The notes under the pieces: generated by a model
Databases searched by the model: none
Told to the model about the DNA's origin: nothing
What the model saw: only the letters and a program-made list of their open reading frames with translations
Program-made: the position numbers and the translations under genes
Assembly (NCBI GenBank): GCA_965223975.1
Contig: OZ245031.1
Span: 2,132,145-2,196,144, forward strand
Length of the DNA: 64,000 bases
From: Pseudomonadales bacterium
Lineage (GTDB): Bacteria > Pseudomonadota > Gammaproteobacteria > Pseudomonadales > JBECKS01
Direction: 5' to 3'
Shown here: one piece after another, positions 9,006 through 60,990 of the stretch
Numbering within the stretch: the first letter of the stretch is position 1
How the letters are laid out: the number at the start of each line of letters is the position of its first letter

Positions 9006-9017
9006 AGACCTCTGAGC

Positions 9018-11941: not shown

Positions 11942-11992
11942 CCCTTATATTGCGCCCTTTACTGGCATAGCAATTCGGAGAAAATACTCGCC

Positions 11993-12808: not shown

Positions 12809-14752
12809 ATGGCAAAAATAATCGGAATCGACCTTGGAACCACTAACTCTTGTGTAGCTGTAATGGAAGGCGACCAAGCTAAGGTGATCGAGAACGTAGA
12901 AGGTGATCGTACTACCCCATCTATCATCGCTTATACCGATGATGAAACCTTAGTGGGTCAATCTGCTAAGCGTCAGGCGGTCACTAATCCAGAGAATACT
13001 CTATTTGCCATTAAGCGTTTAATCGGTCGCAAGTTCACCGACGATGTGGTTCAAAAAGATATCAAAATGGTGCCTTACACCATCTCTGCCGCTGATAATG
13101 GTGACGCATGGGTTGAGGTAAAAGGTGAGAAACAGGCTCCCCCGCAAATCTCAGCGCAAGTTCTTGCGAAAATGAAGAAGACCGCTGAAGACTATCTAGG
13201 TGAAGCTGTAACCGAAGCAGTGGTAACTGTGCCTGCATACTTTAATGATTCTCAGCGTCAAGCGACTAAAGACGCAGGTAAGATTGCCGGTTTAGATGTA
13301 AAACGTATTATCAACGAGCCAACAGCAGCTGCTTTGGCCTATGGTTTGGATAAAGGTCAAGGCGATTCCACCATTGCCGTATATGACCTGGGTGGCGGTA
13401 CTTTTGATATCTCAATCATTGAGATTGCAGAAGTTGATGGCGAGCATCAGTTTGAAGTGCTTTCAACCAGTGGTGATACCTTCCTTGGTGGTGAAGACTT
13501 TGATATGGCCGTGATTGAATACCTTGCTGACGAGTTTAAAAAGGACTCAGGTATTGACCTTCACAACGATCCGCTCGCTTTACAGCGTTTAAAAGAAGCG
13601 GCTGAGAAAGCGAAGATTGAATTGTCTACATCTCAGCAGACTGAAGTTAACCTTCCTTATATTACCGCTGATGCAACAGGTCCCAAGCACCTTGTGGTTA
13701 AGTTATCTCGTGCCAAATTGGAGTCCTTGGTAGAAGACTTAGTGGTAAGAAGTATCGAGCCTTGTAAGACAGCGTTAAAAGATGCCGGTTTAAGTGCCTC
13801 TGAAATTAACGATGTTATTTTGGTAGGCGGTCAAACCCGTATGCCGATGGTTCAAGCAAAAGTACAAGAGTTCTTTGGTAAAGAGCCACGTAAAGACGTT
13901 AACCCTGATGAAGCAGTAGCGATGGGTGCATCTATTCAGGCCGCGGTACTGTCTGGTGATGTGAAAGATGTATTGCTTTTGGATGTGACTCCACTAACCC
14001 TAGGTATCGAAACTATGGGTGGTGTGATGACTCCGTTAATTGAGAAAAACACTACGATCCCTACCAAGGCTTCGCAAGTATTCTCAACTGCAGATGACAA
14101 CCAAACGGCTGTTACTGTTCACGTTCTTCAAGGTGAGCGTAAGCAAGCAGCGGGAAATAAGTCACTTGGTCGTTTTGATTTGGCGGATATTCCACCTGCA
14201 CCTCGCGGTGTACCTCAAATTGAGGTGAGCTTTGATATCGACGCTAATGGTATCTTAAATGTGTCCGCGAAAGATAAAGCGACTAATAAAGAACAGTCTA
14301 TTGTGATTCAAGCCTCTTCAGGTTTGTCCGATGATGAGATTGATGCAATGGTGAAAGATGCTGAAGCGAACGCAGAAGAGGATCGTAAGTTCGAAGAATT
14401 AGTAACAGCTCGCAACCAGGGCGAAGCGATGTTGAACGCAACCAAGAAAACTCTTGAAGAAGCAGGCGACAAAGCTACCGAAGAAGAGAAAACTTCAATC
14501 GAAGCGGCTTGCGCTGAGTTAGAAGAAGCTCTGAAAGGCGATAACAAAGAGGAGATTGAAGCCAAAACAACAGCACTTACAGAAGCTAGTGGTAGCTTGG
14601 CTCAAAAACTTTATGCCGAACAGGCAGCAGCTGCTGGTGCGCAAGGCGGACCTGGGCCGGACGTCGATCCAGCTGCGGGAGCTGAATCCCAAAACGGTTC
14701 TGCTGATGACGCAGTGGACGCTGAGTTCGAAGAAATTAAGGACAACAAATAG
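12809..14752 (+). CDS. dnaK: Molecular chaperone DnaK (Hsp70)
   Basis: Contains [23 protein letters not shown] and the C-terminal EFEE. Confidence 0.98.
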
Positions 14753-17328: not shown

Positions 17329-19738
17329 ATGCCGCTGGTGATTGTAAACATAGTATTAGCTATCACTTTTCTATTTGGCTCTATCGTAGTCAATGCTAAT
17401 TCGCCTGAACTTTTTTCTTTTTTAAGTGCTGAAGAAAAACAGTGGGTCTTAGATAACCCAAAAATAGTGGTTGGAAATGAGCGAGACTGGCCCCCCTTTG
17501 ATTTCGAAGAAAATGGTGAAGCTAAAGGCTATACCATTGATTTAGTCAAGTTGATGGCGGGTAAGCTCGGTCTAGAGGTTGAGTTTGTAGGTGACCTTAC
17601 CTGGGATGAGTTGATGTCTCGATTGGAAAGTGGTGACATCGACATGATGCCTGCGATTTATAAGTCTCCTGAAAGAGAAGAGTATTTGAGCTTTAGTCAC
17701 AGTTATTATTCCCAACCTTCAATTATTGTTGTTAGAAACGGTAATGAGTCTGTAGCTAAATTTGAAGACCTTAAACATAAAAAAGTAGCGGGGGTGAAAG
17801 GTTATTTAGTGACCGAGCGCCTTAAGAAGAGCCACCCTGATATACAAGTAGTAGAGTACGATACGGTGGTCTCATGCTTGCAATCAGTCGCAGTAGGAGA
17901 GGTAGATGCCTACATAGATAGTATCGGTTTACTGGCATATACACTTGAACGCAACTTTATCCCTAATCTAAAAATAATAAACGGCTTAGAACAGTTTGAA
18001 TTATCGAACCCGCCTATGCATATGGCGGTAGGAAAGCAGAGCGAGGTGTTGGTTAGTTTAATCAATAAATCACTCGCCGCAGTTAGTGATGAGGAAAAGC
18101 TTCTTTTGGCAGAAAAGTGGCTGCAAACCAGCTTTTACGAAGACAAGATCATTTTAACTCAAGAGCAAATTGATTGGGTTAAATCGCATCCTAAGATCAG
18201 GCTGGGGCTAGACCCTGCTTATGCTCCATATAGCTTTAAAAATGAAGAAGGTGAATACCTTGGGATAGCCGTCGATTTTCTACACTTGCTAGGACAAAAA
18301 ATTGGAGTGGAGTTTGAGGTTGTTCCTAACCTTTCTTGGGTAGAGATGCTAAGCCACGCAAAAGAACAAAAGCTAGATGTGATAACTCCTGTTGTTCAAA
18401 CCTCCGAACGTAAGGAGTATTTGAACTTCACCCCAGTTTATATTCCGACCCCACTGGTTACTGTAGGCAAAGAGAGTTTGGATTTGGCGGCTTTAGAATC
18501 CGGGGGCTTATACGATCAAGCGAAAGTAGCGCTGGTTAAGGGTTACTCTTCAAGCGATAGGTACATATCAGACCATCCAAGTGCAGATATTGTTTGGGTA
18601 AATACCGCGTTAGAAGCTCTTCAAATGGTGTCTTCAGGACGTGCTGATTTAAGTGTGATGGTGATTGGAGTCGCCTCACAAATTATTCGTGAATACGGTA
18701 TGACACAGCTAGAAATTTTAACCTACTACGATGAAAACTACGATGGCCAAAGAATTGGAATTCGTAGTGACTGGCCTGAGCTTTCGGTGTTGTTAGGTGT
18801 TGCCCTAGATGATGTGAGTGAAAAGGAGCGTAAAGAGATTTATGATCGCTGGATTAGCGTGTCTTTTCATAAAGAAGCAGGCTATAGCTTATTATTTAAG
18901 GCTATTTTGGGTCTGGTGATTGCGTTGCTGTTAATGTCTCTCTATGTGCGTCGTTTGAACTCAGAGATCGAACAGCGTCATCAGGTCCAAGCTAAATTAG
19001 AAGAGAGTAACTATTTTCTAGCACAGGCTAAAAGAAGAGCTGATCGTGCTAATCAAGCCACTTCAGAATTTGTATCGTCCTTAAGCCATGAACTCCGAAC
19101 CCCTTTGACCTCTATCATTGGCTTCTCTCAGCTGTTAAAACTTGATAACACACTTGCCCGAGGAGCATCACACCAAGGCGGATCATATTGAAAAGGCGGG
19201 AGAACACGTTATTAAACTGATTGATGATGTGCTTGATCTATCCATTATAGAGGCGGGTAAATTACGCTTATCACCTGAGCCTATTAAAGCCGGGGAGATC
19301 GTTCAGGAGAGCGTCCATCTCATCAGCCCTCAGTTAAATGACAAAGGCCAAGGTTTGGCTGTAGAAGAGAGCGGGCTAGGAGATGAGCTTATTTATGGTG
19401 ATCGACTAAGAGTTCGCCAGATAATCTTAAATATATTAAGTAACGCGGTAAAATATAATGAGCCTAATGGCAGTATCGATATAAGCTATGAACGCCAGCA
19501 AAACCAGCTGAAGATTTTAGTTGCTGATACTGGGCAGGGGCTGAGCACGCAGCAGTTGAAGGTTTTATTTGAGCCCTACGAGAGAGCAGGCGCCGAGAAG
19601 AGTAATATTCTGGGTAAAGGTATGGGGCTAGCAATCTCAAAGCGGTTGGCAGAATTGATGGGTGGAGAGATTGGTGTTGAGAGTGAAGAGGGCAAGGGCT
19701 CGTGCTTTTGGCTGACTTTACCCCTAGTAGATAGCTAG
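17329..19738 (+). pseudogene. Sensor histidine kinase with two periplasmic solute-binding (SBP_bac_3-like) domains, split by a frameshift in HisKA
   Basis: ORF 17329-19191 ends inside HisKA (SHELRTPLTSIIGFSQLLKLDN). The 19142-19738 frame continues the domain (LPEEHH..IEKAGEHVIKLIDDVLDLS) and then gives HATPase_c (N-box, G1, G2). The frame change is at about 19148-19153. No response regulator is adjacent. Confidence 0.8.
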
Positions 19739-38315: not shown

Positions 38316-38333
38316 ACTTTAACAATTGTGTAT

Positions 38334-38360
38334 AAAAAAGGGGCTGCGGCCCCTTTTTTT
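38334..38360 (+). terminator. Rho-independent terminator
   Basis: aaaaaaggggc-tgcg-gcccc-ttttttt. Confidence 0.75.
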
Positions 38361-38386
38361 GTGTCTGAACTTTGTATAAGACTTGA

Positions 38387-38422
38387 ATATACGGAAAATC
38401 ATATATATGATTTTCCGTATAT
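38387..38422. promoter_or_regulatory. 36-bp perfect palindrome, candidate ArsR operator overlapping the arsR start codon
   Basis: atatacggaaaatcatat|atatgattttccgtatat. I checked it base by base as a perfect inverted repeat. Confidence 0.6.
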
Positions 38423-38771
38423 GATTATTACACCTTTACAGTTTTATAAATGCCTTGCCGATGAAACCCGCTTGAGCTGCGTATTGTTGATTAGTGCGGA
38501 AGAGGAGCTTTGCGTCTGTGAACTCACTGAGTCCATTGATGCTAGCCAGCCTAAGATCTCTAGGCATCTGGCTCAGCTAAGGGAATGCGGTTTGTTAAGT
38601 GATCGACGGGTAGGCCAGTGGATCTTTTACCGAATTAACCCTGAGCTTCCTTCCTGGGCCAAAGAGGTGCTTGCCAGCACTCTTAAAGGCAACCAAGAGC
38701 TATTAAGCCCATTGTGTTGCCGATTAAATGGTATGAGTAAGCGCCCGGAACGTGGCGTAGAGTGTTGCTAG
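38421..38771 (+). CDS. arsR: ArsR-family arsenic-responsive repressor
   Basis: Contains the ELCVCEL metalloid-binding motif and an HTH (QPKISRHLAQLRECGLL). The start is taken at ATG 38421. The track start 38328 would read through the terminator. Confidence 0.9.
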   Translation: MIITPLQFYKCLADETRLSCVLLISAEEELCVCELTESIDASQPKISRHLAQLRECGLLSDRRVGQWIFYRINPELPSWAKEVLASTLKGNQELLSPLCCRLNGMSKRPERGVECC

Positions 38772-38779
38772 GGGGAAGT

Positions 38780-39250
38780 ATGAAAGTCTTATTTATCTGT
38801 ACTCATAATCGTTGTCGAAGCATTCTGGCAGAGGCAGTTACTAATCATTTTTCAGAAGGTTTGATCGAAGCGCAATCAGCGGGCAGTCAGCCTGTGGGTG
38901 AGGTGCATCCCTTGTCTCTAAAGTATTTAAGCGAATCTGGAATCGGCACCGAGGGATTGGTGAGTCAGTCCTGGGATGAACATGAAACCTGGAATGCTGA
39001 TGTGGTGATTACCGTATGTGATTCGGCGGCGGGGGAGTCGTGCCCGGTATGGTTTGGTAAGTCTTTAAAGATTCACTGGGGTTTAAAAGATCCTTCTGCG
39101 ATAGATGGGAGTGAGCAAGAGAAAGAGCAAGCGTTTAAGCAGCTTATAGCTAAGTTGCAGCTGCGTGTAGAAGCTCTGCTTGAAAATAATGTTCATACAG
39201 CTGCGCCTGAAGAGCTAAAAGGTATTTTTACTCGAGTGGGTGAAATCTAA
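38780..39250 (+). CDS. arsC: Arsenate reductase, LMW-PTP (thioredoxin-coupled) type
   Basis: [14 protein letters not shown] (CX5R P-loop) and a downstream Cys pair ([11 protein letters not shown]). Confidence 0.9.
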
Positions 39251-40260
39251 TGGGCCTCTTTGAGCGCTTTTTAAGTGTTTGGGTGGCGCTGGCCATCGTG
39301 CTCGGAGTTGTTTTTGGATCATTGTTTCCAAACTTATTCCAAGTGTTAGCCGGTTTTGAATACGCTCAGGTTAATCTTTTAGTGGCGGTGTTAATTTGGC
39401 TAATGGTTTATCCCATGATGATCCAGATTGATTTTGCAGCAGTTAAGGATATTGGCAAAAAACCCAAAGGCATCGTTTTGACCTTAGTGATCAATTGGTT
39501 AGTTAAGCCTTTTACGATGGCGGTTTTGGCTTGGGTATTTTTTAAAGTCTTTTTTGCAAGTTGGGTTGATCCGCAAACAGCGAATGAGTACATCGCGGGA
39601 ATGATTTTGCTAGGTGTGGCGCCATGTACCGCCATGGTCTTTGTATGGAGCCAGTTGACTAAAGGTGACCCTAATTACACATTGGTCCAGGTATCAGTAA
39701 ATGATGTGATTATGGTTTTTGCCTTTGCACCTATTGCGGCACTCCTTTTGGGAATGTCGGACATTACAGTGCCTTGGAATACCTTGCTTTTGTCAGTTTT
39801 GTTGTACGTGGTGCTACCTTTAATTGCGGGTTTGATAACACGACGAGTGTTAAATGGCGAAACCGAAAATTTTGTTAACCAACTAAAACCATTGTCGATG
39901 TCGGGCTTGTTGCTAACAGTCGTGCTTTTATTCGCTTTTCAGGCGGAGAGCCTGATCACTAAGCCTCAAAGTATTGTGTTAGTTGCTATTCCCTTACTGA
40001 TACAAAGTTATGGAATATTTTTTATTGCCTACTTTGCCGCCAAGCATATGAAGCTACCTTTTTCTATCGCGGCGCCAGCAGCTTTAATTGGTACCAGTAA
40101 TTTTTTTGAGCTCGCGGTAGCAGTTGCGATCTCATTATTTGGATTGCACTCAGGAGCGGCCCTAGCCACAGTTGTGGGTGTGCTGGTTGAGGTGCCTGTG
40201 ATGTTGTCCTTAGTCAAGTTTTCTAATAAAACTCAACACTGGTTTAAGGGCAATGAATAA
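39250..40260 (+). CDS. acr3: Arsenite efflux transporter, ACR3 family
   Basis: Polytopic, with GVAPCTAMV containing the conserved Cys. It lies in the ars operon. Confidence 0.9.
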
Positions 40261-40978
40261 GTTCCCAGCTGAATTAATTAACATTCAAGAGCATGCGTGG
40301 GCGGCTTCCGATATGGCGGCTTTTAAAGGCGCATCTACTAGTACCCATCCACCAAAAATATTGCTTTTGTACGGTTCTTTGCGTGAACGTTCTTTTAGTC
40401 GTCTAGTGGTTGAGGAGAGTGCGCGTATCTTACAAGCACTCGGCGCTGAGACTCGAATATTTAATCCTTCCGGATTGCCTTTGCCTGATGATGAGGATGA
40501 AAGCCATCCAAAGGTTCAAGAATTAAGAGAGTTAATGGCATGGTCCGAAGGCCAGGTATGGTGTTCACCAGAACGTCATGGCTCGATGACCGGAATTATG
40601 AAAGCTCAAATTGACTGGGTGCCTCTGGCGATGGGAGCTGTGCGTCCAACTCAAGGAAAAACCTTGGCTGTTATGCAGGTTGAGGGTGGTTCGCAGTCCT
40701 TTAATGCGGTTAACCAACTTAGAGTACTTGGTCGTTGGATGCGTATGATCACGATTCCTAATCAATCCTCTGTGGCTAAGGCCTGGAAAGAATTTGATGA
40801 GAATGACCGCATGAAACCCTCTGGCTTTTATGATCGTATTGTCGATGTGATGGAAGAGCTGGTTAAATTTACCATAATGACTCGTGATCACTCAGATTAC
40901 CTAGTGGATCGTTACTCCGAAAGAAAGGAGAGCGGAGAGGAGCTTATCCAACGAGTGAATAAGGATAGAGCTACCTAG
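40253..40978 (+). CDS. arsH: Arsenical resistance protein ArsH (NADPH-dependent FMN reductase)
   Basis: Contains [14 protein letters not shown] and [16 protein letters not shown]. Confidence 0.9.
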
Positions 40979-41046: not shown

Positions 41047-41943
41047 GTGCCTATTATGCAAATACCTGCGATTCAAATACCTGCGAATCATAATTCCGCG
41101 ACAAAGAATTTGTTCTTAAGCTCGGTTATTGTCTTGCTTAGTCTGGTTCTGGTGGCATGCGATGCCCTGTTCCCGCCAAGTCCCTACGATTGCGAGAAAA
41201 TGCCTGAAGTGCTTGAGACAAAAGCAGCAGCCTATGTTCTTTGGCGAAAGGAAGCGGTTCAAATATTCGAGACCAATGTTTTTTCAAAGCTTATTCCTTG
41301 GCTTCTGGCTGAGCGAATGGGACGGGTGGGTCCAGATGGTGAGCCTTTGCCATCGATTAAGTTTTGGCTCAGGGATGATGCGGTTGATAACTTTACGTTC
41401 TCAGATGCTAAGCGCAAAGATGGCGCTGTCATTGCTGGATTGCTATTAATCCAAAACCCACATGAGCAGGAAAAGCTACATGCGCTAATGGATGAGTTAT
41501 TTTACGACTACGCGGCTTTTGAAGTTGATAACAGTATTCCTTTGGATTCAGGCTTTCCTTATGTAAGTGGTGAAATGTTGCCAGGTCTAGTATCGGTATC
41601 TTTTTTTGAAGCGCCGAAAGAGATGTCTCGGGAAAACTTTAAGCAGTATTGGTTTTGCAGTCACACGCCTTTTGCTTTGGATATTCATCCGCTCTGGTCC
41701 TACGAAAGAAATCATGTCAACAAACAATTAGTAGCGCCTAAGAGGGTAGAAGGTCAGCTAAGCTTTGACGCAATAGTGCCTTTGCACTTACAGCATGATT
41801 CAGATATTGAGTTTTCTAGATTTTTCGCAGCTGATGGAAATTCGCCTCTGAAGAATGCCCTACGAATACAGTCCGATGTTGAACGTTTTATAGATATGGA
41901 TAAGATTCAGACCGTGCCTATGCGGCAGTTTATTTATAATTAA
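41047..41943 (+). CDS. Hypothetical lipoprotein
   Basis: Lipobox LVLVAC. I recognise no domain. It is the first gene of a tightly spaced three-gene unit. The start is GTG 41047 or ATG 41056. Confidence 0.6.
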   Translation: MPIMQIPAIQIPANHNSATKNLFLSSVIVLLSLVLVACDALFPPSPYDCEKMPEVLETKAAAYVLWRKEAVQIFETNVFSKLIPWLLAERMGRVGPDGEPLPSIKFWLRDDAVDNFTFSDAKRKDGAVIAGLLLIQNPHEQEKLHALMDELFYDYAAFEVDNSIPLDSGFPYVSGEMLPGLVSVSFFEAPKEMSRENFKQYWFCSHTPFALDIHPLWSYERNHVNKQLVAPKRVEGQLSFDAIVPLHLQHDSDIEFSRFFAADGNSPLKNALRIQSDVERFIDMDKIQTVPMRQFIYN

Positions 41944-41965
41944 AAAATAAAAAGGGAGAGCGAAA

Positions 41966-42730
41966 ATGAGCGCAGAAGCTATCTATCAATACTTACTGTA
42001 CTTTATGTTCGCGATGTGTGCTTTCACTTTTATGGGCAGCTTTTTCTACACCACGCCTTATGGTCGTTTTAAAAAAAGTGATGAAAAATTTGAGTTGCCT
42101 TCTCTACCTGGTTGGCTGCTTATGGAGTTTCCCTGCTTAGTGGCGGGTATTTCTGCTTTTTTTTTAACCGGTGGTAATACTGGCGCATTGGTGCCTTTGG
42201 TCTTTATTTGTATTTGGCAGTGTCATTACATTTACCGTTCGATCATTTTTCCTTTAAGGATGAATAGTCGGAATAAAAAAATGCCGGTGATGGCGGTTGT
42301 TACAGGTATTGTATTTAACTCAATCAATGGCTTTTTAAACGGTTATGCTTTTTCTCATGCTGAGCACCTGCTTGATGCAAGCTGGTTAATGAGCCCAATG
42401 TTTATTGCGGGGGTTTCTATGATGATCGTCGGTTTGGCCATTAATATTCATTCCGATAATGTGTTAAAAAATCTACGAGCGCCAGGCGAAACAGGTTACA
42501 AGGTGCCCAAGGGAGGCTTTTATCGTTGGGTGTCAGTACCGAATTACTTTGGTGAGATTATTGAGTGGTGTGGTTTAGCACTAGCGGCTTGTACTCCAGC
42601 AGCCTTGTCTTTTGCTTTGTTTTCCATTGCTAATTTGTTTCCAAGAGCGCTGGCGCATCATCGTTGGTATCGTGAGACCTTTGAGGACTATCCTGATTCT
42701 CGCAAAGCGATTATTCCATTTGTTATATAA
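41966..42730 (+). CDS. 3-oxo-5-alpha-steroid 4-dehydrogenase (steroid 5-alpha-reductase/TECR) family membrane reductase
   Basis: Contains PKGGFYRWVSVPNYFGEIIEWCGLALA, the C-terminal signature of the family. Polytopic. Confidence 0.8.
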   Translation: MSAEAIYQYLLYFMFAMCAFTFMGSFFYTTPYGRFKKSDEKFELPSLPGWLLMEFPCLVAGISAFFLTGGNTGALVPLVFICIWQCHYIYRSIIFPLRMNSRNKKMPVMAVVTGIVFNSINGFLNGYAFSHAEHLLDASWLMSPMFIAGVSMMIVGLAINIHSDNVLKNLRAPGETGYKVPKGGFYRWVSVPNYFGEIIEWCGLALAACTPAALSFALFSIANLFPRALAHHRWYRETFEDYPDSRKAIIPFVI

Positions 42731-42753
42731 AGAGTTATTTAAAGGGTAGGCCT

Positions 42754-43407
42754 GTGCAATTAGCAATCTATATCATTAGTTTATCGGTTCTGGTCAGTGC
42801 CGTCCTTCATCTACGCGCTGAGAAATATAATGATGTTCGCAAGATTTATATATTTAAGTCCTTAACAACAAGTTTAATTATCGGCTTAGCTTTTTATATG
42901 GGTAGCTTAGATAGCCTTTATACCAAGCTGATTATATTGGGTTTGATTTTCTCATTGGCTGGCGATGTGTTTTTAATCTCCGAGAATGGCTTTGTTCGGG
43001 GCTTACTTAGTTTTTTAGTGGCTCACGTATTTTATATTGCTGCCTTTGTTATAGAGCTTGGTATTGATCAGGTTTTGTATTTGCCGTCTTTATTGCCTTT
43101 TGTTTTGTTTGCTTTAGTTGTAATTGCTCTGGTCTATCCCGGCTTAGGCACGCTCAAGATTCCTGTCTTTGTTTATATCAGCGTGATTTTGCTCATGGGT
43201 TGGCAAAGTCTCAATTTGTATTTGGTAGAAGCTAGTCGTTTTGCATTATCGGCCTGTGTGGGCGCCGCCTTTTTTATGCTGTCTGATTCTTTGATTGCAA
43301 TCGATAAGTTTCGTTCTGAGCTTAAACACAATAGGCTCCTGATCATGAGTACCTATTACTTAGGACAGTGGTTAATAGCCTTGTCGATCTTGGGTTTTGG
43401 GCAATAA
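42754..43407 (+). CDS. YhhN/TMEM86 family protein (lysoplasmalogenase family)
   Basis: Polytopic, with LAGDVFL and FLVAHVFYI motifs characteristic of YhhN. GTG start. Confidence 0.75.
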   Translation: MQLAIYIISLSVLVSAVLHLRAEKYNDVRKIYIFKSLTTSLIIGLAFYMGSLDSLYTKLIILGLIFSLAGDVFLISENGFVRGLLSFLVAHVFYIAAFVIELGIDQVLYLPSLLPFVLFALVVIALVYPGLGTLKIPVFVYISVILLMGWQSLNLYLVEASRFALSACVGAAFFMLSDSLIAIDKFRSELKHNRLLIMSTYYLGQWLIALSILGFGQ

Positions 43408-43537: not shown

Positions 43538-43614
<77 letters not shown>

Positions 43615-50896: not shown

Positions 50897-52978
50897 ATGT
50901 TTAATCATGTAAGAAAAGAAATTCAATTTGGTAATGACACAGTTGTACTAGAAACTGGAAAAATCGCTCGTCAAGCAACAGGTGCCGTGATGGCAAGTAT
51001 GGGCGATACCACTGTTTTGGTAACGGTAGTTGGCCGCAAAGAAGTGAAGCCTGGCCAAGACTTTTTTCCATTAACCGTTAACTATCAAGAAAAAGCTTAT
51101 GCTGCTGGTAAAATCCCTGGTGGCTACTTTAAGCGTGAAGGTCGTCCAACTGAAAAAGAAACATTAACTTGTCGTTTAATCGACCGACCTATTCGTCCTT
51201 TATTCCCTAAGGGCTTTATGAACGAAGTACAAGTAATCGCTACCGTGATTTCTTGTGACAAAGACACTGATCCAGATATTTTATCACTAGTAGGTACCTC
51301 AGCAGCTTTGGCTATCTCTGGTATTCCTTTTGATGGTCCTTTAGGTGCAGCCCGTGTTGGTTTTATCGACGGTATGTATGTTCTTAACCCTGGTTATTCA
51401 GCGCTTGAAAATTCAAGTCTTGACCTAGTGGTTGCAGGTACTAAAGATGCGGTATTGATGGTTGAGTCTGAAGCTAAAGAGCTTTCAGAAGATCAAATGC
51501 TAGGTGCTGTTCTTTTTGGTCACCAAGAATTCCAATCAGTGATCAAAGGTGTTGAAGAGTTTGCAGCTGAAGCAGCTAAAGAGAAGTGGGATTGGGCACC
51601 AGAGCCAGAAAACACTGAGCTTAAAACTAAAGTAAGCGACGCTTACGGAAGTAAAATTTCTGACGCTTATCAGATTAAAGACAAAATGCAGCGCTATGAC
51701 ACTTTGTCTGCTTTAAGAAACGAAGCGGCTGAAGCTTTAGCCACTGAAGAACTAGCGGCTGATGATATTAAAGACACTTTCTCTTCTGTAGAGAAAAATG
51801 TTGTACGTGAAAACGTATTAAGCGGTGCGCCACGTATTGATGGTCGTGCGGGCAACAAGGTTCGCGATATCTTCACTGAGCTAAACGTACTACCTAAGGC
51901 TCACGGTTCAGCCATGTTTACTCGTGGTGAGACTCAAGCCATTGTTGTTGCGACTTTAGGTAGTCAGCGTGATGCGCAAATCATTGATGCGCTTGAAGGT
52001 AAAAAGACTGATCCTTTCATGCTTCACTACAACTTCCCTCCATTCTGTGTGGGTGAGACTGCTTTCAACTTGGGTCCAAAGCGTCGTGAGATTGGTCACG
52101 GTCGTTTGGCTCGCCGTGGTATCCAAGCGGTGCTTCCTACCGAAGAAGAATTCCCGTACACCATGCGTGTAGTATCAGAAATCACTGAATCTAATGGCTC
52201 ATCATCAATGGCTTCAGTGTGTGGTTCAAGTATGGCTTTGATGGACGCGGGCGTGCCTCTTAAAGCACCTGTTGCTGGTATTGCAATGGGTCTTGTTAAA
52301 GATGGTGATCGCTATGCGATTCTTTCTGACATCTTGGGTGATGAAGATCACCTAGGTGATATGGACTTTAAAGTAGCCGGTACTCAAGACGGTATTACTG
52401 CTCTTCAAATGGATATCAAAATCCAAGGTATCACCGAAGAGATTATGGAAAAGGCTTTAGAACAAGCAAAAGAAGGTCGTCAGCACATCTTAGCTGAAAT
52501 GGCTAAAACCATATCTGCTTCTAAGACTGAAGTGTCTGAGCAAGCGCCTACTTACGCAACTCTAAACATTAATCCAGACAAGATTCGCGACGTTATTGGT
52601 AAGGGGGGTGCAACTATCCGTGCCTTGACCGAAGAGACCGGCGCTAGCATCGACCTAGATGATAGTGGTTTGGTTAAAATTTTTGGTGAAACTAAAGCGG
52701 CTGCTGATGCGGCAATCGAGCGTATCTCTGAAATCACTGCTGAGCCAGAAATTGGCAAGGTATATGAAGGTACAGTTGCTCGTATCGTAGACTTTGGCGC
52801 TTTCGTAACCTTTATGCCTGGTACTGATGGTTTGTTACACGTTTCTCAAATTGCTGAGGAACATGTTAAGAACGTTTCTGATTTCTTGTCAGAAGGTCAA
52901 ACGGTTAAGGTATTGGTTAAAGACGTGGATAATCGTGGTCGCGTTAAGTTGAGCATGAAAGACGTTAAAGAAGACTAA
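50897..52978 (+). CDS. pnp: Polyribonucleotide nucleotidyltransferase (PNPase)
   Basis: 693 aa with two RNase PH domains, then KH and S1 ([18 protein letters not shown]). Confidence 0.98.
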
Positions 52979-53000
52979 TACTGAGTTTTCAATAAATTAA

Positions 53001-53027
53001 AAGGCTTCCTTGTGAAGCCTTTTTTTT
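53001..53027 (+). terminator. pnp Rho-independent terminator
   Basis: aaggcttc-cttgt-gaagcctt followed by T7. Confidence 0.8.
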
Positions 53028-53081
53028 GCCCGTATTTTTGCCTTTATTCTTGCATGGTTTTTTCGTTTATAATTGTTGCTT

Positions 53082-53972
53082 ATGAATATACCGATAAAAT
53101 ATATTGAGCCCGTTTTTAGGCCGCCTAGTGAAGCGCGTTCACTGATTCTTCCTGTGACCAATGGTTGCTCCTGGAATGAGTGCACTTTCTGTGACATGTA
53201 TACGGCGGAGCAAAAAAAGTTCTCTGTTAGACCTCAAGAGCAACTCGATCAAGAGCTTAAAGCGGTATCTGAACAGTATGAGGTTAAGCGAATATTTTTG
53301 GCCGATGGAGATGCCATGACCTTAAGCTTTCGACGTCTAAAAGCGATACTAGAGTCGATCAATCGTTACTTTCCTAATATCCAGCGAGTGAGCTCTTACT
53401 GTTTGCCTCGTAATATAAAAAACAAATCAGTGGAAGAGTTAGCGGAGTTAAAAGAGCTTGGTCTAAAAATGCTCTATGTGGGCTGTGAGTCAGGTGATGA
53501 TGAGGTGCTCCGCTGTATTAAAAAAGGTGAGACTTATCAGAGTTCAAAAGATGCTTTGTTGAAGATTAAAGCATCGGGCATAAAAAGCTCGGTAATGATT
53601 TTAAATGGCATGGGCGGGGTTGAGTTAAGTGAGCAACACGCACTGAACTCGGCACGCTTAATGAATGACTGTCAGCCGGATTATCTTTCAACTCTGGTGG
53701 TGAGTTATCCCTTGGGAGAAGAGCGAGTTCAGGAAGGTTTTGAAGGGCGCTATCAGCAACTGGATCAAGCTCATCTATTTAAAGAGATACAATTATTTTT
53801 AAACGAATTGGACCTAGAAAGCACTATCTTTAGAAGTGATCATGCTTCCAACTATCTGGTGTTAAAAGGTGTGCTTGGTAAAGATAAGCAGAAGTTACTG
53901 ACTCAAGTGAATCAAGCGATTGAAAAGCCGGATAGCGTATTTTTAAGGGAAGAATGGCAGCGGGGTTTGTAG
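53082..53972 (+). CDS. Radical SAM-like protein with non-canonical CX4CX2C cluster motif
   Basis: RPPSEA..L.L.VTNGCSWNECTFCDMY, then a GDA...-type SAM-binding stretch (IFLADGDAM) and GCESGDD. The start is ATG 53082 or TTG 53073. Confidence 0.75.
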   Translation: MNIPIKYIEPVFRPPSEARSLILPVTNGCSWNECTFCDMYTAEQKKFSVRPQEQLDQELKAVSEQYEVKRIFLADGDAMTLSFRRLKAILESINRYFPNIQRVSSYCLPRNIKNKSVEELAELKELGLKMLYVGCESGDDEVLRCIKKGETYQSSKDALLKIKASGIKSSVMILNGMGGVELSEQHALNSARLMNDCQPDYLSTLVVSYPLGEERVQEGFEGRYQQLDQAHLFKEIQLFLNELDLESTIFRSDHASNYLVLKGVLGKDKQKLLTQVNQAIEKPDSVFLREEWQRGL

Positions 53973-54021
53973 TCTAGGGATTTATAGTCTGTGAAAGGCC
54001 GTGCGAGCTAAGCTTCAAGCT

Positions 54022-55788
54022 TTAGGTCTCATTGACTAGATCGATATGCTTTCTGCGCATAGCTCTTGCTTTTTGTTTTTTTGCAGCGTCACTGGCTAGT
54101 ATCTCTAGTTCCCCGATGTCTTTATCACTGTCGGGGGTTATGGCAATATCCTTATATTCAAATCGCTTCGGGTTGGACCATATTTTTTTCATCATTCGAT
54201 TTACTCGAAAATAGCAGCTTAAGATAACAGTGCTGGTGTAGAAAAATTCAATCAGTACTTTAGGGTAAAAGACTAAGATGGGTTCTTGAGCTAAAGAGGG
54301 TCGTCTATCTTTGCGGTTTTTAAGTCTTATCCATCCACCTTCAAGTGGATGGATACCGTATAGCCGTCTGTATTCTCTATACATTACTAGTTGTACAACG
54401 GTATTAATTTTTAAATTGCTGCCAAGAGCAGCTGCTCTTTTTAGAACGGTTTCCATGTGTTTGAATGTGTAATATCGATTCCATACCTCGTTATATAGTG
54501 AGTCCCATTCTTCATCTGGAATATTCTCATAATGAATAACCCTATGGTTTAAGTCATAGAGATTCATATCACTATCCATCCATACTCCAGCTTCAATATT
54601 CTTTTTGTGATCCTCGCTGCCAGGGAGAGGGGTGAGATTAGTAAAGTACATAACGTCGATTGGCAGTTCTCTTTTTACCGTGTCGATGTCTCGTAGAATA
54701 GATTCTCGCGTTTCATTAGGGAAACCCAGAATATACCCTACGGTTATAATAATAGGATATTGTTTCCATGCCTGGAGCATTTCTCGGTACTCGGCAATTT
54801 TATTTTGCCTTTTCTTGACCAAGAGCAAGCTGTCCGGGTTGATGCTTTCCATGCCTATAAAGATATGGTCAACTCCGGCAGCTACCGCTTTTTCGATAAA
54901 GCCATCGATTCGATGACAAAGGGTGTCGACCTGAATTTGAAGGCGTAGCCTTATACCATCTTCTTGCCGTAGCTTGATCATACGATCAAAGAACAAACGC
55001 CAATTTTTGTTTCGAGCTAGATTGTCATCGGTAATGAAATATTTAAAGATGCCATTTTCTGCATTGGCTCGGATAATATTTTCTAGATCGTTCTCGGTTC
55101 GGAATCGACTAACACGTCCTTGCACGTTAATTATGGTGCAAAATGAGCATTCAAATGGGCACCCCCTACCTAAATCAAAACTAGAGTATTGGTTCATGGT
55201 TTTGTCAATTTGCTCTTTGGGCAGATAAGGCAGTGCTTGCTCTTCGAGGCTAGGCATATCATCCGTATAATCGTAAAGCTTCTTAAGCGCCCCTGCGTAG
55301 GCATCTTTGATGACCTGGTCAAATCGTTGGTCTTCCGCTTCGCCTGAGAATAAAGATATTCCCATTTTTTGGGCGGCAAGAATATCTTCAGGCAATTGGT
55401 CTAGCATCGAAAGACAGCCAGAAATATGAAAGCCGCCTGCGGCTACAGGTATTCCCGCTTCTAGAAAAGGTCGGGCTAGATCAACAGTCCTGGGAAACTG
55501 ATTGGTTTGAACTCCTACAAAACAAATGACCCCTGATGACTTAGGTTGTTGAATTAGTTTTAGAATTTTTTTTGTGTTTATTTTGGTGTTGGTGTCATCA
55601 ATAGTGTGTAAAACACATTCGACATTAGGTCCTAGTATTTGTCGGTTTAATGCGTCCTTAGCTATGCCGTACACGGCTGCCAGAGAGTTTGATGGAATTA
55701 AGGATCTAAACCAGCGTATTGGATAACCATTATCGTCATAGTGAGTAGGCTTAATTAAGTAGATGTGAAACTTTTTCTTATTCAACAT
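54022..55788 (-). CDS. B12-binding-domain radical SAM protein
   Basis: The N-terminal Rossmann-like half (VICFVGVQTNQ..., AAGGFHISG) is followed by GRGCPFECSFCTI (CX3CX2C). The start at ATG 55788 is 7 nt after the stop of the upstream desaturase-like gene. Confidence 0.8.
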   Translation of the reverse strand: MLNKKKFHIYLIKPTHYDDNGYPIRWFRSLIPSNSLAAVYGIAKDALNRQILGPNVECVLHTIDDTNTKINTKKILKLIQQPKSSGVICFVGVQTNQFPRTVDLARPFLEAGIPVAAGGFHISGCLSMLDQLPEDILAAQKMGISLFSGEAEDQRFDQVIKDAYAGALKKLYDYTDDMPSLEEQALPYLPKEQIDKTMNQYSSFDLGRGCPFECSFCTIINVQGRVSRFRTENDLENIIRANAENGIFKYFITDDNLARNKNWRLFFDRMIKLRQEDGIRLRLQIQVDTLCHRIDGFIEKAVAAGVDHIFIGMESINPDSLLLVKKRQNKIAEYREMLQAWKQYPIIITVGYILGFPNETRESILRDIDTVKRELPIDVMYFTNLTPLPGSEDHKKNIEAGVWMDSDMNLYDLNHRVIHYENIPDEEWDSLYNEVWNRYYTFKHMETVLKRAAALGSNLKINTVVQLVMYREYRRLYGIHPLEGGWIRLKNRKDRRPSLAQEPILVFYPKVLIEFFYTSTVILSCYFRVNRMMKKIWSNPKRFEYKDIAITPDSDKDIGELEILASDAAKKQKARAMRRKHIDLVNET

Positions 55789-55795
55789 ACTTACT

Positions 55796-56554
55796 CTACT
55801 GCTCTTTGAGTGGTGGCAATAAAGCATCTTTAGAGAAAAGTCCCCTTGCTAGAGCTATTTTGACTAATCTATTAACCAGAGGGTCGGCCCAGCCATTGAT
55901 AAAACAAAAATGCCTTTCCGGGTCTTGATGATGAATAGCATGATATTTCGGTGACATAATAATTTTGTAACGATGTAGAATGTTGATGAATTTAGAATTA
56001 GGATGCCGACCGTGAGCAATCGAATGAATATATTGAGCCCAAAAAATAACCGCTCCAGTTAGGAACAAGGTTAGGCTAATGTATGCAGGTGCATTGTTTA
56101 AACTAATAAGAGCGGATAGAAAGAAAAAAAAGATAGTTGCGGGTAGTGTGGGTAAGAAAGTGGTGTAAGCAGGTCGAGTCGCAACTTGTTTTGGGCTGGT
56201 TAAGTGATGATGTTTAAAAAAAAATACGGGATGTTGAAGGATGCCAGCCTTTTTCATTACTCGTGATCTTAGTTGCAAATACTCGGGCGATGATTTTTTT
56301 CCTTTGTAGTAAAAAAGCTTGTCCAAACCAACACCTTTTTTACACGGAGTATAGTCCACTATAAAGTGCAAAAGTCCCGAAATGAAATCAGCCAAATAGG
56401 TAGCTATAAATAAGGCAAATATAAAACCAAGGGCTGAGTATTGATCAAAACCATTTGATAAGATGATTAGGCTCGTTACTAATGCACAAACCATAGTGAG
56501 CAATAGAACTTTAAATCTTTGGAGGTCTTGTTTGTCTACAGAATTTATAGGCAT
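55796..56554 (-). CDS. CarF/PEDS1(TMEM189)/FAD4-like membrane lipid desaturase
   Basis: His clusters ADFISGLLHF, FKHHH, YIHSIAHGRH and PKYHAIHHQDPERHFCFINGW align by eye with human PEDS1 AADFASGLVHW, FREHH, QIHKWSH and [23 protein letters not shown]. Confidence 0.7.
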   Translation of the reverse strand: MPINSVDKQDLQRFKVLLLTMVCALVTSLIILSNGFDQYSALGFIFALFIATYLADFISGLLHFIVDYTPCKKGVGLDKLFYYKGKKSSPEYLQLRSRVMKKAGILQHPVFFFKHHHLTSPKQVATRPAYTTFLPTLPATIFFFFLSALISLNNAPAYISLTLFLTGAVIFWAQYIHSIAHGRHPNSKFINILHRYKIIMSPKYHAIHHQDPERHFCFINGWADPLVNRLVKIALARGLFSKDALLPPLKEQ

Positions 56555-56752
56555 TGTTACGTATCGAGCTTGAACAACTGGTGATTATTGTATGGTAAAT
56601 ATTAACCTCAAACTGGTTAACAAGCTATTGGAGTAACTATTATGGCTAAATGTGTATCTGGTTTGTGGGATGATATTGGGTCTGGGTTGTCTGGGGCTGT
56701 GGAGCTAAGCCTGAGATTGTTGAGCTTAGTAGTCTGTGTTAGAGACTAAGGG

Positions 56753-59452
56753 CTAGGTCTGTGTAGGGTCTACCTCTGAGAATGACTCCGGGATTAAAGC
56801 CTGCTTGTGTACCTTTTGATCACCAATCTTATATGAGCAAGACCTTAGCCAAGCGATAAGATCTTCAGCACTCAGTGGTCTCGTTAAGTGGTAACCCTGA
56901 GCAATATCGCAGCCGAGGTTGCGTAAAGCCTCCAGTATCTCGGCATTTTCTACGCCTTCAGCCACTACCCTTAAGCCAAGGTTGTGACTCATATGAAGAG
57001 TAGTATCTACGATTACTGAGTCATCTTTGTCTTTTACCATATCCATGATGAAAGACTTATCTATTTTAACTTCATTCAAAGGTAGCTGTTTAATGTATGA
57101 CAGTGATGAGTATCCCGTGCCAAAGTCGTCGATAGAGATACGAATGCCATCCGAGCTTAGTTGGTTTAATACATTCTTTGCATGATTTGGATCCAGCATC
57201 ATCGCGGTTTCCGTTAGCTCGAGCATTAAGAAATTAGGAGGCACTTTGTGTTTCGCGAGCAAGCTCTTTACACGGGTTACAAAGTTAGGCTCTTGCAAGT
57301 TTTGTGCGCTTAAATTTACCGAAATCGAAATTTCCATACCTTGTTGTACGAGGTAGGCACACTCTTCTAATGCTTTATTGAGTACCCAGCGAGTAAGCTT
57401 GCGTGTTAAGCCTGTTTTTTCTGCCAGTGGTATGAATTCGTCAGGTGGAATGAAACCATGCTCATTATGTTTCCAGCGTGCAAGAGCTTCGACGCCTACA
57501 ACCGCATTCTGTTCTATATCGATTTGTGGTTGGAAATATAATAAAAGCTCATCCTGATCAATGGCCTGGCTTAGCTCTCCCATAAGCGCCAGTCGCCGAG
57601 GGCTGTATGGGTCCAGTTCGGGTGAGTACATAGTTAGATGAGTCGCGTTCTTGTCAGCATTTTCCATAGCGACTAATGCGCGACGTACCAAGGTGTTTAG
57701 GTCTTTTCCGTGTTCGGGATAAAGTGCAACACCGAGGCGAGCACCGATATCGATCGACATATCTCTAAATTCAAAATGCTTTCGCATACTGGTCAGTACG
57801 CGTTTTGCTGCAAACTCAACTTGTTGCTGTGTGTCTACCAGTAAGACTAAGCCGTAAGTAACTCCCTCGATGCTTGCGACACTTTGTTTGCTAGCGTCAA
57901 CATCGATGATGGTGGAGTTTTCTAGGTTATTAGCTATCTCTGCTAGACGTTCAGTAACAATTTTGAGTAGATCGTCACCATTTTGATGGCCAAGCGTGTT
58001 ATTGATTTCATGAAAGTGGCTAAGGTTTACTAATACCACGGCAATGGATTGCTGATAAATCTCTGCTTCACGAATTATTTCGGGCATACGCTTTTGCAAA
58101 GCGAGGCGGTTGGGTAAGCTTGTTAAAGGATCATGAAGAGCTCGGCTTAGCATTTCATCTTCGGCTCTGCGCGAAGCAATAATGCTTTGGTGTTGTTTTC
58201 CCAGCTCGATGTATTTAAGGCGATTATCATTTTGTGTACGGTCAATTAACCCTAGTGAGAGTAGCAATAAGTGGGCAGCGAAGGCTATGTGAAAGGAGAA
58301 GTAGCCCAAGGTTGGGAATGGGAATAAGTCATAACTATGCAGGGCGTAAATCACTAAACCAAGAGGCAAGCACATCATGGCCATAAAGTAGAGCATGGCG
58401 GGATGGCGACCATTTGCCTGCCAACTTTTTAGGATAGCTGCGATAGTTAGGATAGAGATCACGCCGGCAGCCATAAAGAAATAGATACTGATACTTGAGG
58501 GCTCGAATACAAAAGGGCTTAGTGCTAACGCTAAGCTAACAGGAAGCGATACCAATAGAAGTTTGTTTACCCTTGGGGAATTGCGCTTAGTTTCTAGCAA
58601 GGATAGGCAGAACAGCGTTCCCCATAATAATGCACCTGCCCCAGAAGATAGGGCGATCATGATCGAGGAATCTGGCAAGAAACTCCATAGCTGCATGCTG
58701 CCTAAACCACTTAGGCTTAACATGAATACTGATACGGCCGACAGATAAAGGAGGTAAAAAGTATAGGTAATGTCACCGACGGAGATGTTTAAAAATGCGT
58801 TGTATAAAAAAAGCAGGAGCATCACGCCGTAAAATACGCCGATGATAGATGAGATTAAATTGTTGCTGCGTTCGATATGAGTGGGGTTCCAAATAGACGC
58901 GCTTACGTTAAGTGTCTCGCTAGGTTGAATGCGAATGAGCACTCTGGTTTGTTCTTGTTGAAATAGATGAACAAGAAACGCACTGCTGTTAAAGTTCCTA
59001 CCTTCGAGTACATTTATACCCTGGGCTTCTGCCGATTTAAGCTTGTATAGACCATCAGCGGAAATGTCGAAAACCTGTGTATTATCTTTTAAGCTTTCGT
59101 TATCTCCAAAAATCTCGACAAGCCATTCTTGCTGAGCAAGATGGCTAGGGTCTTGGCTTAATATAAGGCTAAACCAATAGCTTTGTTCTGGCTCAAGTTT
59201 AATGCCGTTGGAGCTGACCTCCTTAAACTCGGAGAAAGGAAGCTTAGAAACCTCTTGTACATCTAATGCCCTGCTGGCGTCTATATAAAGCCTTAGTGCG
59301 CGCGTAATGGATATCTCGCTAAGCGAGTCGTTTAGTTCTAACGAGGTATCTGCAAGATTTGAGTTGGCAAAGCTGTTGTTGCTAATAAGCAATAACAAGC
59401 TTGCTAAGCACGAGAGCAAAGGAGCGATTATTTTAAATTGGCTGAAACGCAT
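56753..59452 (-). CDS. 7TMR-DISM sensor with degenerate GGDEF and intact EAL domain (c-di-GMP phosphodiesterase)
   Basis: Signal peptide, a periplasmic DISMED2-like domain and 7 TM helices. The GGDEF position reads EGVTY. The EAL domain has EAL, SVNLS, ELTE, DDFGTG, KIDK, EGVE and QGY. Confidence 0.85.
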   Translation of the reverse strand: MRFSQFKIIAPLLSCLASLLLLISNNSFANSNLADTSLELNDSLSEISITRALRLYIDASRALDVQEVSKLPFSEFKEVSSNGIKLEPEQSYWFSLILSQDPSHLAQQEWLVEIFGDNESLKDNTQVFDISADGLYKLKSAEAQGINVLEGRNFNSSAFLVHLFQQEQTRVLIRIQPSETLNVSASIWNPTHIERSNNLISSIIGVFYGVMLLLFLYNAFLNISVGDITYTFYLLYLSAVSVFMLSLSGLGSMQLWSFLPDSSIMIALSSGAGALLWGTLFCLSLLETKRNSPRVNKLLLVSLPVSLALALSPFVFEPSSISIYFFMAAGVISILTIAAILKSWQANGRHPAMLYFMAMMCLPLGLVIYALHSYDLFPFPTLGYFSFHIAFAAHLLLLSLGLIDRTQNDNRLKYIELGKQHQSIIASRRAEDEMLSRALHDPLTSLPNRLALQKRMPEIIREAEIYQQSIAVVLVNLSHFHEINNTLGHQNGDDLLKIVTERLAEIANNLENSTIIDVDASKQSVASIEGVTYGLVLLVDTQQQVEFAAKRVLTSMRKHFEFRDMSIDIGARLGVALYPEHGKDLNTLVRRALVAMENADKNATHLTMYSPELDPYSPRRLALMGELSQAIDQDELLLYFQPQIDIEQNAVVGVEALARWKHNEHGFIPPDEFIPLAEKTGLTRKLTRWVLNKALEECAYLVQQGMEISISVNLSAQNLQEPNFVTRVKSLLAKHKVPPNFLMLELTETAMMLDPNHAKNVLNQLSSDGIRISIDDFGTGYSSLSYIKQLPLNEVKIDKSFIMDMVKDKDDSVIVDTTLHMSHNLGLRVVAEGVENAEILEALRNLGCDIAQGYHLTRPLSAEDLIAWLRSCSYKIGDQKVHKQALIPESFSEVDPTQT

Positions 59453-59649
59453 GTTGATAATATATTAACTCTTTTGCCTAAGCTTTAAGGCTAAGCTGTA
59501 ATTTTACAGCTTTTTAGGTTTATGTAAGAGGTAAACAAGAAAGAAGGGGTCTTGTGCTACCGGTTTTCTTTTTATCTGAAACAGAGCTTAATCTGTAAAT
59601 AAAAAGTATCACACGCTTGTCCGTAGCGAAGGCTGATATCCAAAATTAG

Positions 59650-60990
59650 CTATTTGGCTGAAAATAGGTTTTTAAGGCTCCAGGAGCGTTCTTGGTTTTG
59701 CTGTTGTTTCGGTGGTACGAAACCTTGTGTCAATATATCTGTGTCTAGCTCAATGCCAGCATCAATTAAACTTTTACGTACGCTAGTAGCGCCTGCTGAC
59801 TGTGTTTGGGATCTTTGATAAAGATCAACAATAGTTTTTTTGTGAACGACTTTGCCGTCCTTATCTCTAAGAATCATTACTTTAGGTAATAATTTCCGCT
59901 CCGGGTTTTGTGCAATAACAATTCCTACTTCATCGCTATTGAGCTCTACAAGCGTTCCGGCAGGGTATATACCGATTGCTTTAATAAACTCTTCTACTAG
60001 CTGACCGTTGAATGCTCCGTTACGCATTTTATAGATACGCGATGCTCCGTCAGATGGAGTTAGCTGTGATTCTTGTGCTCTTACGCTAGTGATTCGGTCG
60101 AATTCATCAACGAGGCCGGCGATTTGAGCCAGAATAGGAATCTGATTCCCTGCCAATGCGAAAGGATAACCTGAGCCATCTAATCTTTCGTGGTGAGCCT
60201 CAATTATTGGAATGATCTCTGGTGGAATGCTATCCCCAGCCTCTTCGAGAATTTCTATCGTAAGCATGATATGAGTGCGATACTCTGGAATATCTTCTAG
60301 CTCGATCTTTTTAGCCAGCAGCAGTACGTCATCATCCAGCCTTGCAATTCCGATATCGCAGAGTAGCACGGCGAGCGTAAGTAGTTCGATGTCTTCTTGT
60401 TTCATTCCAAGGTGTACACCAAAGGAAGCAGCAAGAACGGATGCTCTAATGGCATGGCTATAGCTGGCATCGTGGCTCGCTTTCATTTTGCTAAGCCACA
60501 CTAAAGCGTCGGGGTTTCGAATCACTGATTCGGTGATTTGCTTGACCGCTTTTTTGGATTCAGTGGCATCGAATACCTCGCCTTTTTTCAAATTACTAAG
60601 CGAAGACTCGAAAGCTGTCTCGATTTCTTTATAAATGGTTTCGCCCTTAGATAGTTCAGACTCTAAAGGCTGATGATTAGTATATTTAACACTCTTAAGG
60701 CGAACCGTCCGTTTGTTAGGGTTCGCTTTTTTGCCACCGACGGTAACGGTTTCTTTTTTCTTTTTTGCAACTGGTTGGCGTTTCTTGAGCTCTTCGCTTG
60801 GTGGGTTACCTTTTTCAACGTCGATGAAAACAAACTTACAAAAATTTTGTACTTTTTGCGCGTCGCTCCCGTCTCGAATATGAAAACCCTGCAAAGGAAA
60901 TGGAGTGTCCACCCAGGGGCGATCCAACTCGGATACGTACATTCCAATTTCAAGGTCTTGAGCTCTAACTTTGACAAGTGCTAAGGGCAT
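59650..60990 (-). CDS. HD-GYP domain c-di-GMP phosphodiesterase with a DUF3391-like N-terminus
   Basis: Contains HHERLDGSGYP and the N-terminal L.IGMYV.ELDRPW.DTPF. Confidence 0.85.
   Translation of the reverse strand: MPLALVKVRAQDLEIGMYVSELDRPWVDTPFPLQGFHIRDGSDAQKVQNFCKFVFIDVEKGNPPSEELKKRQPVAKKKKETVTVGGKKANPNKRTVRLKSVKYTNHQPLESELSKGETIYKEIETAFESSLSNLKKGEVFDATESKKAVKQITESVIRNPDALVWLSKMKASHDASYSHAIRASVLAASFGVHLGMKQEDIELLTLAVLLCDIGIARLDDDVLLLAKKIELEDIPEYRTHIMLTIEILEEAGDSIPPEIIPIIEAHHERLDGSGYPFALAGNQIPILAQIAGLVDEFDRITSVRAQESQLTPSDGASRIYKMRNGAFNGQLVEEFIKAIGIYPAGTLVELNSDEVGIVIAQNPERKLLPKVMILRDKDGKVVHKKTIVDLYQRSQTQSAGATSVRKSLIDAGIELDTDILTQGFVPPKQQQNQERSWSLKNLFSAK

Follow-up and report, generated by a model that had tools for sequence, protein, structure and literature searches.

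The window analysed here is a 64,000-nucleotide (nt) stretch of contig OZ245031.1 (assembly GCA_965223975.1) of a Pseudomonadales bacterium, and our subject is a pair of adjacent genes on its minus strand. The ORF (open reading frame) list places the first at 55796-56554; it encodes a polytopic protein of 252 amino acids (aa), a predicted lipid desaturase. The second, at 54022-55788, encodes a radical SAM enzyme of 588 aa. Read from its first ATG, the radical SAM frame covers 54022-55827 (minus strand) and has 601 codons for amino acids, but the N-termini in an alignment of 22 homologues begin at the equivalent of the second ATG (55788), so that the 588-aa form is the likely product. An earlier note on this DNA had described both frames and the 7 nt between them correctly, and had read them as an operon and a candidate for an undescribed lipid-tailoring system.

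The junction consists of the desaturase stop codon TAG (55798-55796), the spacer agtaagt (7 nt, 55789-55795, minus strand, read directly from the sequence) and the start codon of the radical SAM gene (ATG, 55788). A purine-rich AAAGAG/AGAG directly upstream of this start could act as a ribosome-binding site. A consensus scan of positions 52900-57000 gave a single promoter-like site on the minus strand, a sigma-70-like candidate (TTGAGG, 16 nt, AATAAT; 56584-56611) located in the 198 nt that separate the desaturase gene from the next gene upstream; the call is a plain consensus match, in a region that gave three matches against a mean of 9.2 in shuffled sequence. The scan found neither a promoter-like nor a terminator-like site at the junction between the two genes. 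Their co-transcription, as proposed in the earlier note, is plausible on this layout.

The Rfam matches are two tRNAs and a ribosomal S15 leader; none of them is a riboswitch, and none lies near the pair. Recent horizontal transfer of the pair was considered and rejected, as GC content and codon usage are not anomalous and give no compositional sign of it. A role in defence was likewise discarded: PADLOC returned a generic, weak match for the radical SAM enzyme (34.6 bits) and nothing for the desaturase.

The 252-aa protein matches the Pfam family Lipid_desat (PF10520) with 56.7 bits (cut-off 26.4, E 4.2e-15) over residues 112-229. Its histidines form four clusters, H63, H116/H117, H177/H181 and H205/H208/H209, and the last of these is followed by P212, F216-C217-F218 and G221-W222. 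In mouse PEDS1, a member of the PF10520 family, eight histidines are essential (H96, H121, H122, H187, H191, H215, H218 and H219), together with an essential aspartate, D100, and an important phenylalanine, F118, of the F-x-x-H-H motif (PMC8960569). All eight histidines are kept in the desaturase, and they are invariant across 34 sequences of its subclade and the alignment of PEDS1-type proteins. D67, four residues past the first histidine, and F113 are also invariant in the alignment with PEDS1-type sequences. The residues invariant in the 34 subclade sequences are D56, H63, D67, K114, H116, H117, H177, H181, H205, H208, H209 and G221. Profile match and motifs thus place the 252-aa protein firmly in the TMEM189/CarF/FAD4 family, to which it had first been assigned from the four histidine clusters.

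The AlphaFold model of the desaturase (pLDDT 94.7) has four long hydrophobic helices. A Foldseek search with this model found no significant homologue among solved structures, the best match being the fatty-acid hydroxylase Scs7p (E 0.44). To our knowledge, there is no solved structure for the PEDS1/FAD4 family.

The family includes enzymes of different specificity, and two observations bear on the type present here. The desaturase scores 33.4 bits with the NCBIfam CarF equivalog NF045946, for which the cut-off is 500. PEDS1-type enzymes have a ninth essential histidine (CarF H113, mouse H131), shared by those of Metazoa, myxobacteria and Leptospira; the plant and alphaproteobacterial homologues lack it, and plants have 'usually an arginine' at this position (PMC9131029). 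The plant and alphaproteobacterial (Bradyrhizobium) homologues that lack this histidine failed to complement a carF deletion (PMC9131029, PMC13012113). In the window's protein it is Arg127 that aligns with the ninth histidine, a position at which its near relatives within the subclade carry R, K or Q. The PEDS1-type representatives, which are about 20-24% identical to the desaturase, carry FREHHxDPxAITRHDF in this region. Because of the CarF score and of Arg127, we regard the 252-aa protein as FAD4-like and not as a vinyl-ether desaturase (PEDS1/CarF). With the arginine, it is also most likely that the enzyme acts on an ester-linked acyl chain and forms no vinyl ether.

Within PF10520, the desaturase is one of a rare bacterial subclade whose members share an insertion of roughly 30 residues (about L77-Q107) that separates the first and second histidine motifs. 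This subclade comprises just seven clusters among 5.8 billion proteins, at 44-49% identity to the desaturase, and a search of 1.84 billion gave 21 representatives with E <= 1e-30. In metagenome scans, the near-clade alignment A2 retrieved no relatives, and alignment A4 retrieved relatives from the subclade. The 91 subclade loci that were compared correspond to 20 sequence clusters at 70% identity.

The 588-aa protein has a radical SAM core, C210-x3-C214-x2-C217, whose cysteines are invariant among the 22 aligned homologues. Radical_SAM (PF04055, 65.2 bits) is the only Pfam domain found in it, which bears out the CX3CX2C core read earlier from the letters. The best NCBIfam matches are BchE, HpnJ, TIGR04013 and HpnR, at about 52-56 bits against cut-offs of 251-650. 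Individual equivalog scores are 55.7 for BchE (cut-off 481), 55.2 for HpnJ (577.6), 51.8 for HpnR (650) and 38.4 for the ladderane radical SAM protein (360). Since these scores are far under the cut-offs, no named enzyme, the known lipid-modifying radical SAM enzymes included, has the protein as an equivalog.

The AlphaFold model of the radical SAM protein (pLDDT 84, pTM 0.85) has an N-terminal Rossmann-like domain with five strands and five helices (residues 5-173), a radical SAM barrel and a helical C-terminal region. The Foldseek search ranked AprD4 first, followed by MgmA/QCMT, CysS, TokK, TsrM and OxsB, with about 500 columns aligned, and AprD4 also ranked first in a sequence search of solved structures. 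The model thus suggests a two-domain class-B architecture. The 'B12-binding-like' N-terminal half of the earlier note is true of the modelled fold; its binding of cobalamin is another matter, as neither the B12-binding domain PF02310 nor DUF4070 matched any of the 22 family members, even at E <= 1. Presumably the GGFH that follows strand 4 of the Rossmann-like domain resembles the motifs of B12 domains. AprD4 and the ArsL homologues have Rossmann-related domains with no cobalamin bound (PMC12931638). On the model, the Rossmann-like domain of the window's enzyme may or may not hold cobalamin.

This radical SAM family is large and widespread. There are more than 8000 significant homologues, the best 120 of which are 51-78% identical, and at least 598 loci in species-representative genomes. 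The hosts among the loci listed are mostly Alphaproteobacteria, with some Paraburkholderia, Marinobacterium, Chromatiales, Acidobacteriota, Verrucomicrobiota and Nitrospirota. A second, small radical SAM protein of 299 aa is encoded in the window on the plus strand (53073-53972), convergent with the large gene and separated from it by 49 nt. It has a non-canonical CX4CX2C motif (C32, C37, C40) and matches no NCBIfam equivalog. It was tried as a third partner of the pair and rejected, no homologue being present near any of the fetched loci.

The pairing of the two genes was then sought from both sides. From the side of the radical SAM enzyme, no CarF-like ORF was found within about 8 kb at any of 86 loci, and at 81 loci a hidden Markov model (HMM) of the CarF-like clade, run against every ORF of 80 aa or more within about 8 kb, found nothing even at E <= 10. 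The five closest radical SAM relatives (78-58% identity) sit in unrelated settings. Clustering of the flanking ORFs gave no partner cluster present in more than 17 of 82 loci. The 138 immediate neighbours of the radical SAM genes fall into 94 Pfam families, among which MFS (10) and TauD (6) are the most frequent and no lipid theme is apparent.

From the side of the desaturase, no homologue of the window's radical SAM enzyme occurs near the subclade genes (0 of 91 loci, 2284 ORFs). The six other near-clade desaturases with a readable context adjoin dapD/argS, lipA or an LpxL-type acyltransferase. The adjacency is thus confined to this genome in our data, with no co-conservation on either side, a result that by the earlier note's own standard refutes its lipid-tailoring hypothesis. 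The radical SAM family is also about a thousand-fold more abundant than the desaturase clade and stands alone in hundreds of species; it must therefore be able to function without the desaturase.

We therefore consider that the two genes are probably a lineage-specific juxtaposition of two independently functioning enzymes, rather than a conserved two-component system. A full-text literature search retrieved no paper joining CarF, radical SAM and plasmalogen, and a 2026 review of lipid-modifying radical SAM enzymes describes no pathway that unites such an enzyme with the CarF/FAD4 family. The earlier remark that no characterised pathway combines the two families is thus borne out; the better explanation for this lack is that the two genes form no system, rather than that one has been overlooked.

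Several points weigh against independence of the two enzymes. The 7-nt gap on the same strand, without an internal promoter, suggests an operon, and functional links are common between operon partners. The closest relative of the radical SAM enzyme, at locus L009 (78% identity), lies in a region (7319-14692 of that locus) with two FA_hydroxylase proteins (weakly OlsE-like), a Rieske/KshA_C oxygenase (weakly SdmA-like), a TetR regulator and an Acyl_transf_3 protein. L009 is the only other radical SAM locus with membrane His-box enzymes, and on account of its neighbourhood two of the five closest radical SAM relatives adjoin membrane di-iron enzymes. Finally, the analysis covers a 64-kb part of a genome that measures about 3.2 Mb, and the scan that gave at least 598 radical SAM loci did not include the window's own genome, so that closer gammaproteobacterial relatives may be unsampled. 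The L009 type of association did not recur at the other radical SAM loci: homologues of KpsS, LpxL, FA_hydroxylase, Rieske and Acyl_transf_3 are all non-recurrent near the family.

The strongest alternative is a lineage-specific module of two lipid-tailoring enzymes, to which we give a low but real probability. The desaturase would set a double bond near the head group, and the radical SAM enzyme would methylate, cyclise or cross-link the chain at or next to the sp2 centre, or would act first on the saturated chain. The close spacing behind a single upstream promoter candidate, with no internal terminator, is what such a module would predict, and the lipid-hydroxylase-like genes around L009 and the class-B-like architecture, as in HpnP/HpnR, Grs and Gmm, agree with it. 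The known lipid reactions of radical SAM enzymes proceed via Csp2 and Csp3 centres (PMC13459092), which would suit a substrate of this kind; they concern isoprenoid lipids almost entirely (PMC13459092), which would not. The main objections are the lack of co-conservation over 86 and 91 loci and the great excess of the radical SAM family, with its neighbours free of any lipid theme, to which is added the distance of the enzyme from every known lipid radical SAM equivalog. With the same low probability, the pair may have been recruited into one operon in this lineage to modify an ester-linked, non-isoprenoid envelope lipid, for example with the radical SAM enzyme functionalising a double bond near the head group.

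Much less probable is that the two enzymes are isofunctional, an O2-dependent di-iron desaturase and an O2-independent radical SAM desaturase making the same double bond under aerobic and anaerobic conditions, in the manner of AcsF/BchE or HemF/HemN. It is true that BchE is the best NCBIfam match of the radical SAM enzyme, although far under its cut-off, and that archaea are reported to possess Ted, a B12-radical SAM enzyme that desaturates lipids (bioRxiv 10.1101/2025.10.20.683597). The relation to Ted and its relatives is at the level of the superfamily only, and many genomes and loci have a member of the radical SAM family but no such desaturase. Neither the promoter scan nor Rfam gave a regulatory element pointing to oxygen switching, and such pairs are not usually located in one operon.

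Least credible of all is the plasmalogen reading, in which the 252-aa protein would be a plasmanylethanolamine desaturase of CarF/PEDS1 type sharing a lipid theme with the radical SAM enzyme and the YhhN gene of the window: PF10520 membership and the presence of YhhN agree with it, but the CarF score, Arg127 with the failed complementation by such homologues, the lack of any AGPS, FAR or ElbD-type gene in the window (the rest of which is housekeeping) and the remoteness of YhhN all speak against it.

The YhhN gene itself (42754-43407, plus strand; PF07947, 159 bits) ends an apparent plus-strand operon at 41047-43407, as had been noticed earlier. The other members encode an EthD-domain protein (41047-41943) and a Steroid_dh protein (PF02544, 41966-42730, 168 bits); the gaps are 22-23 nt, and a tRNA follows YhhN at 43538-43611. 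This operon lies about 12.4 kb from the pair, on the opposite strand and beyond the housekeeping genes rimP-nusA-infB-rbfA-truB-rpsO-pnp. With its membrane reductase and lysoplasmalogenase-family protein, it may be a lipid-related module of its own; the ether-lipid theme that would have tied it to the pair does not hold.

For two enzymes working independently, the following mechanism can be proposed. The desaturase would be a four-helix membrane enzyme with a cytoplasmic di-iron centre held by the eight histidines, and with D67 and F113 in the second shell. By analogy with its family, it would take two hydrogens from a lipid chain at a site near the head group, at the expense of O2 and an electron donor. 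Both characterised family members desaturate in this part of the chain, PEDS1 at delta-1' and FAD4 at delta-3. The window's enzyme would be of the FAD4 type, most likely with an ester-linked acyl chain as substrate. In the radical SAM enzyme, a [4Fe-4S] cluster on C210, C214 and C217 is expected to cleave S-adenosylmethionine to a 5'-deoxyadenosyl radical, which would abstract a hydrogen from the substrate.

The neighbours of the desaturase relatives may indicate a class of substrates. In 7 of the 20 subclade clusters the desaturase gene adjoins one for a KpsS-like Capsule_synth protein (PF05159; NCBIfam KpsS 235 bits, under the cut-off), and in 7 of the 20 a GT1 glycosyltransferase gene. A divergent LpxL-type acyltransferase gene lies directly upstream on the same strand in two clusters. 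Examples of such envelope-glycolipid neighbourhoods are those of L167 (7657-8943), L164 (5647-6843), L004 (1734-2675) and L090 (1647-2402), with their sister loci. KpsS acts on phosphatidylglycerol-anchored Kdo glycolipids, LpxL on Kdo2-lipid IVA, and FAD4 on phosphatidylglycerol (PG). The LpxL-type, KpsS-type and glycosyltransferase neighbours would thus point, loosely, to envelope glycolipids or PG. As a lead drawn by analogy, the subclade may desaturate an acyl chain of an envelope lipid near its ester end; this chain could belong to a glycolipid that is linked to Kdo or anchored by PG (lipid A or the capsule anchor). No homologue of KpsS, LpxL, FA_hydroxylase, Rieske or Acyl_transf_3 proteins is present in the 64-kb window.

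In one clade of the subclade, at L158 (1501-2745) and some 19 sister loci, a gene for a TIGR03916 radical SAM protein (570 bits) converges with that of the desaturase and ends within a few nucleotides of it. This 'putative DNA modification/repair' protein was considered as a partner and discarded: it is unrelated to the radical SAM enzyme of the window, is confined to the one clade and looks like a case of taxon-specific synteny.

The window has several other features. Directly upstream of the pair, on the same strand, there are two cyclic-di-GMP genes (56753-60990), one for a 7TMR-DISM/GGDEF/EAL protein (56753-59452, minus strand) and one for an HD-GYP-like protein with the motif HHERLDGSGYP (59650-60990, minus strand). 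A sensor kinase gene on the plus strand is apparently split (17329-19738). Its first ORF (17329-19191) encodes two SBP_bac_3 domains and a truncated HisKA, and is overlapped by a second ORF in another frame (19142-19738) that encodes HATPase_c; a frameshift, a pseudogene or a sequencing error is possible. An arsenic-resistance-like cluster (38328-40978, plus strand) comprises genes for an ArsR-type HTH_5 protein, an LMWP (ArsC-type) protein, an SBF/Acr3-like transporter and an FMN_red (ArsH-like) protein. The ribosomal S15 leader (RF00114, 50339-50461, plus strand, 56.8 bits) is located upstream of rpsO, its expected and known position.

The two enzymes are of interest separately. The rare, insertion-bearing FAD4-like subclade with its KpsS- and LpxL-type neighbours offers a lead, open to experiment, towards a bacterial enzyme that desaturates acyl chains close to the head group. 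The radical SAM family is brought to attention as a large, well-conserved and stand-alone group with class-B architecture and no recognisable B12 domain. If the two did work together, the lipid chemistry of radical SAM enzymes would be extended from isoprenoid to bacterial acyl lipids, and a function would be gained for a family of more than 8000 sequences; modification of an envelope lipid would be a rare instance of an aerobic proteobacterium applying such chemistry to an acyl lipid. There is also a caution: membership of PF10520, or a nearby YhhN gene, does not establish plasmalogen synthesis.

Among known systems, the best match of the radical SAM enzyme is AprD4 (PDB 6fd2), a radical SAM 1,2-diol dehydratase from the biosynthesis of apramycin. 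Over the core, the sequence match has E 5e-14. The folds are alike (E 1.5e-15, TM 0.72 on the target, 493 columns), each with a Rossmann-like domain and a barrel. However, the identity is only 16%, the NCBIfam AprD4 model gives 39 bits against a cut-off of 500, and the window's enzyme has about 150 extra helical residues at its C-terminus. AprD4, which works in an aminoglycoside cluster, itself binds no cobalamin (PMC12931638). The cobalamin-dependent class-B enzymes (HpnP/HpnR, GrsA/B, Gmm and Ted; TokK, CysS, TsrM and OxsB among those with solved structures) share with the window's enzyme the domain order, the fold and the CX3CX2C motif, and differ from it in that its family gives no PF02310 or DUF4070 match and that its HpnR, HpnJ and ladderane scores stay under the cut-offs.

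The desaturase shares with CarF/PEDS1 (TMEM189) PF10520, the eight histidines, D67 (mouse D100), F113 (mouse F118) and the modelled four-helix membrane topology; it differs in failing the equivalog, in having R127 for the ninth histidine and in the lack of ether-lipid precursor genes in the window. Compared with FAD4, the trans-delta-3 desaturase of sn-2 16:0 in plant plastid phosphatidylglycerol (Arabidopsis NP_194433), the window's protein is bacterial and bears the insertion of about 30 residues; the likeness lies in PF10520, in the same arrangement of eight histidines and in a basic residue, arginine, at the position of the ninth PEDS1 histidine (PMC9131029, PMC8960569).

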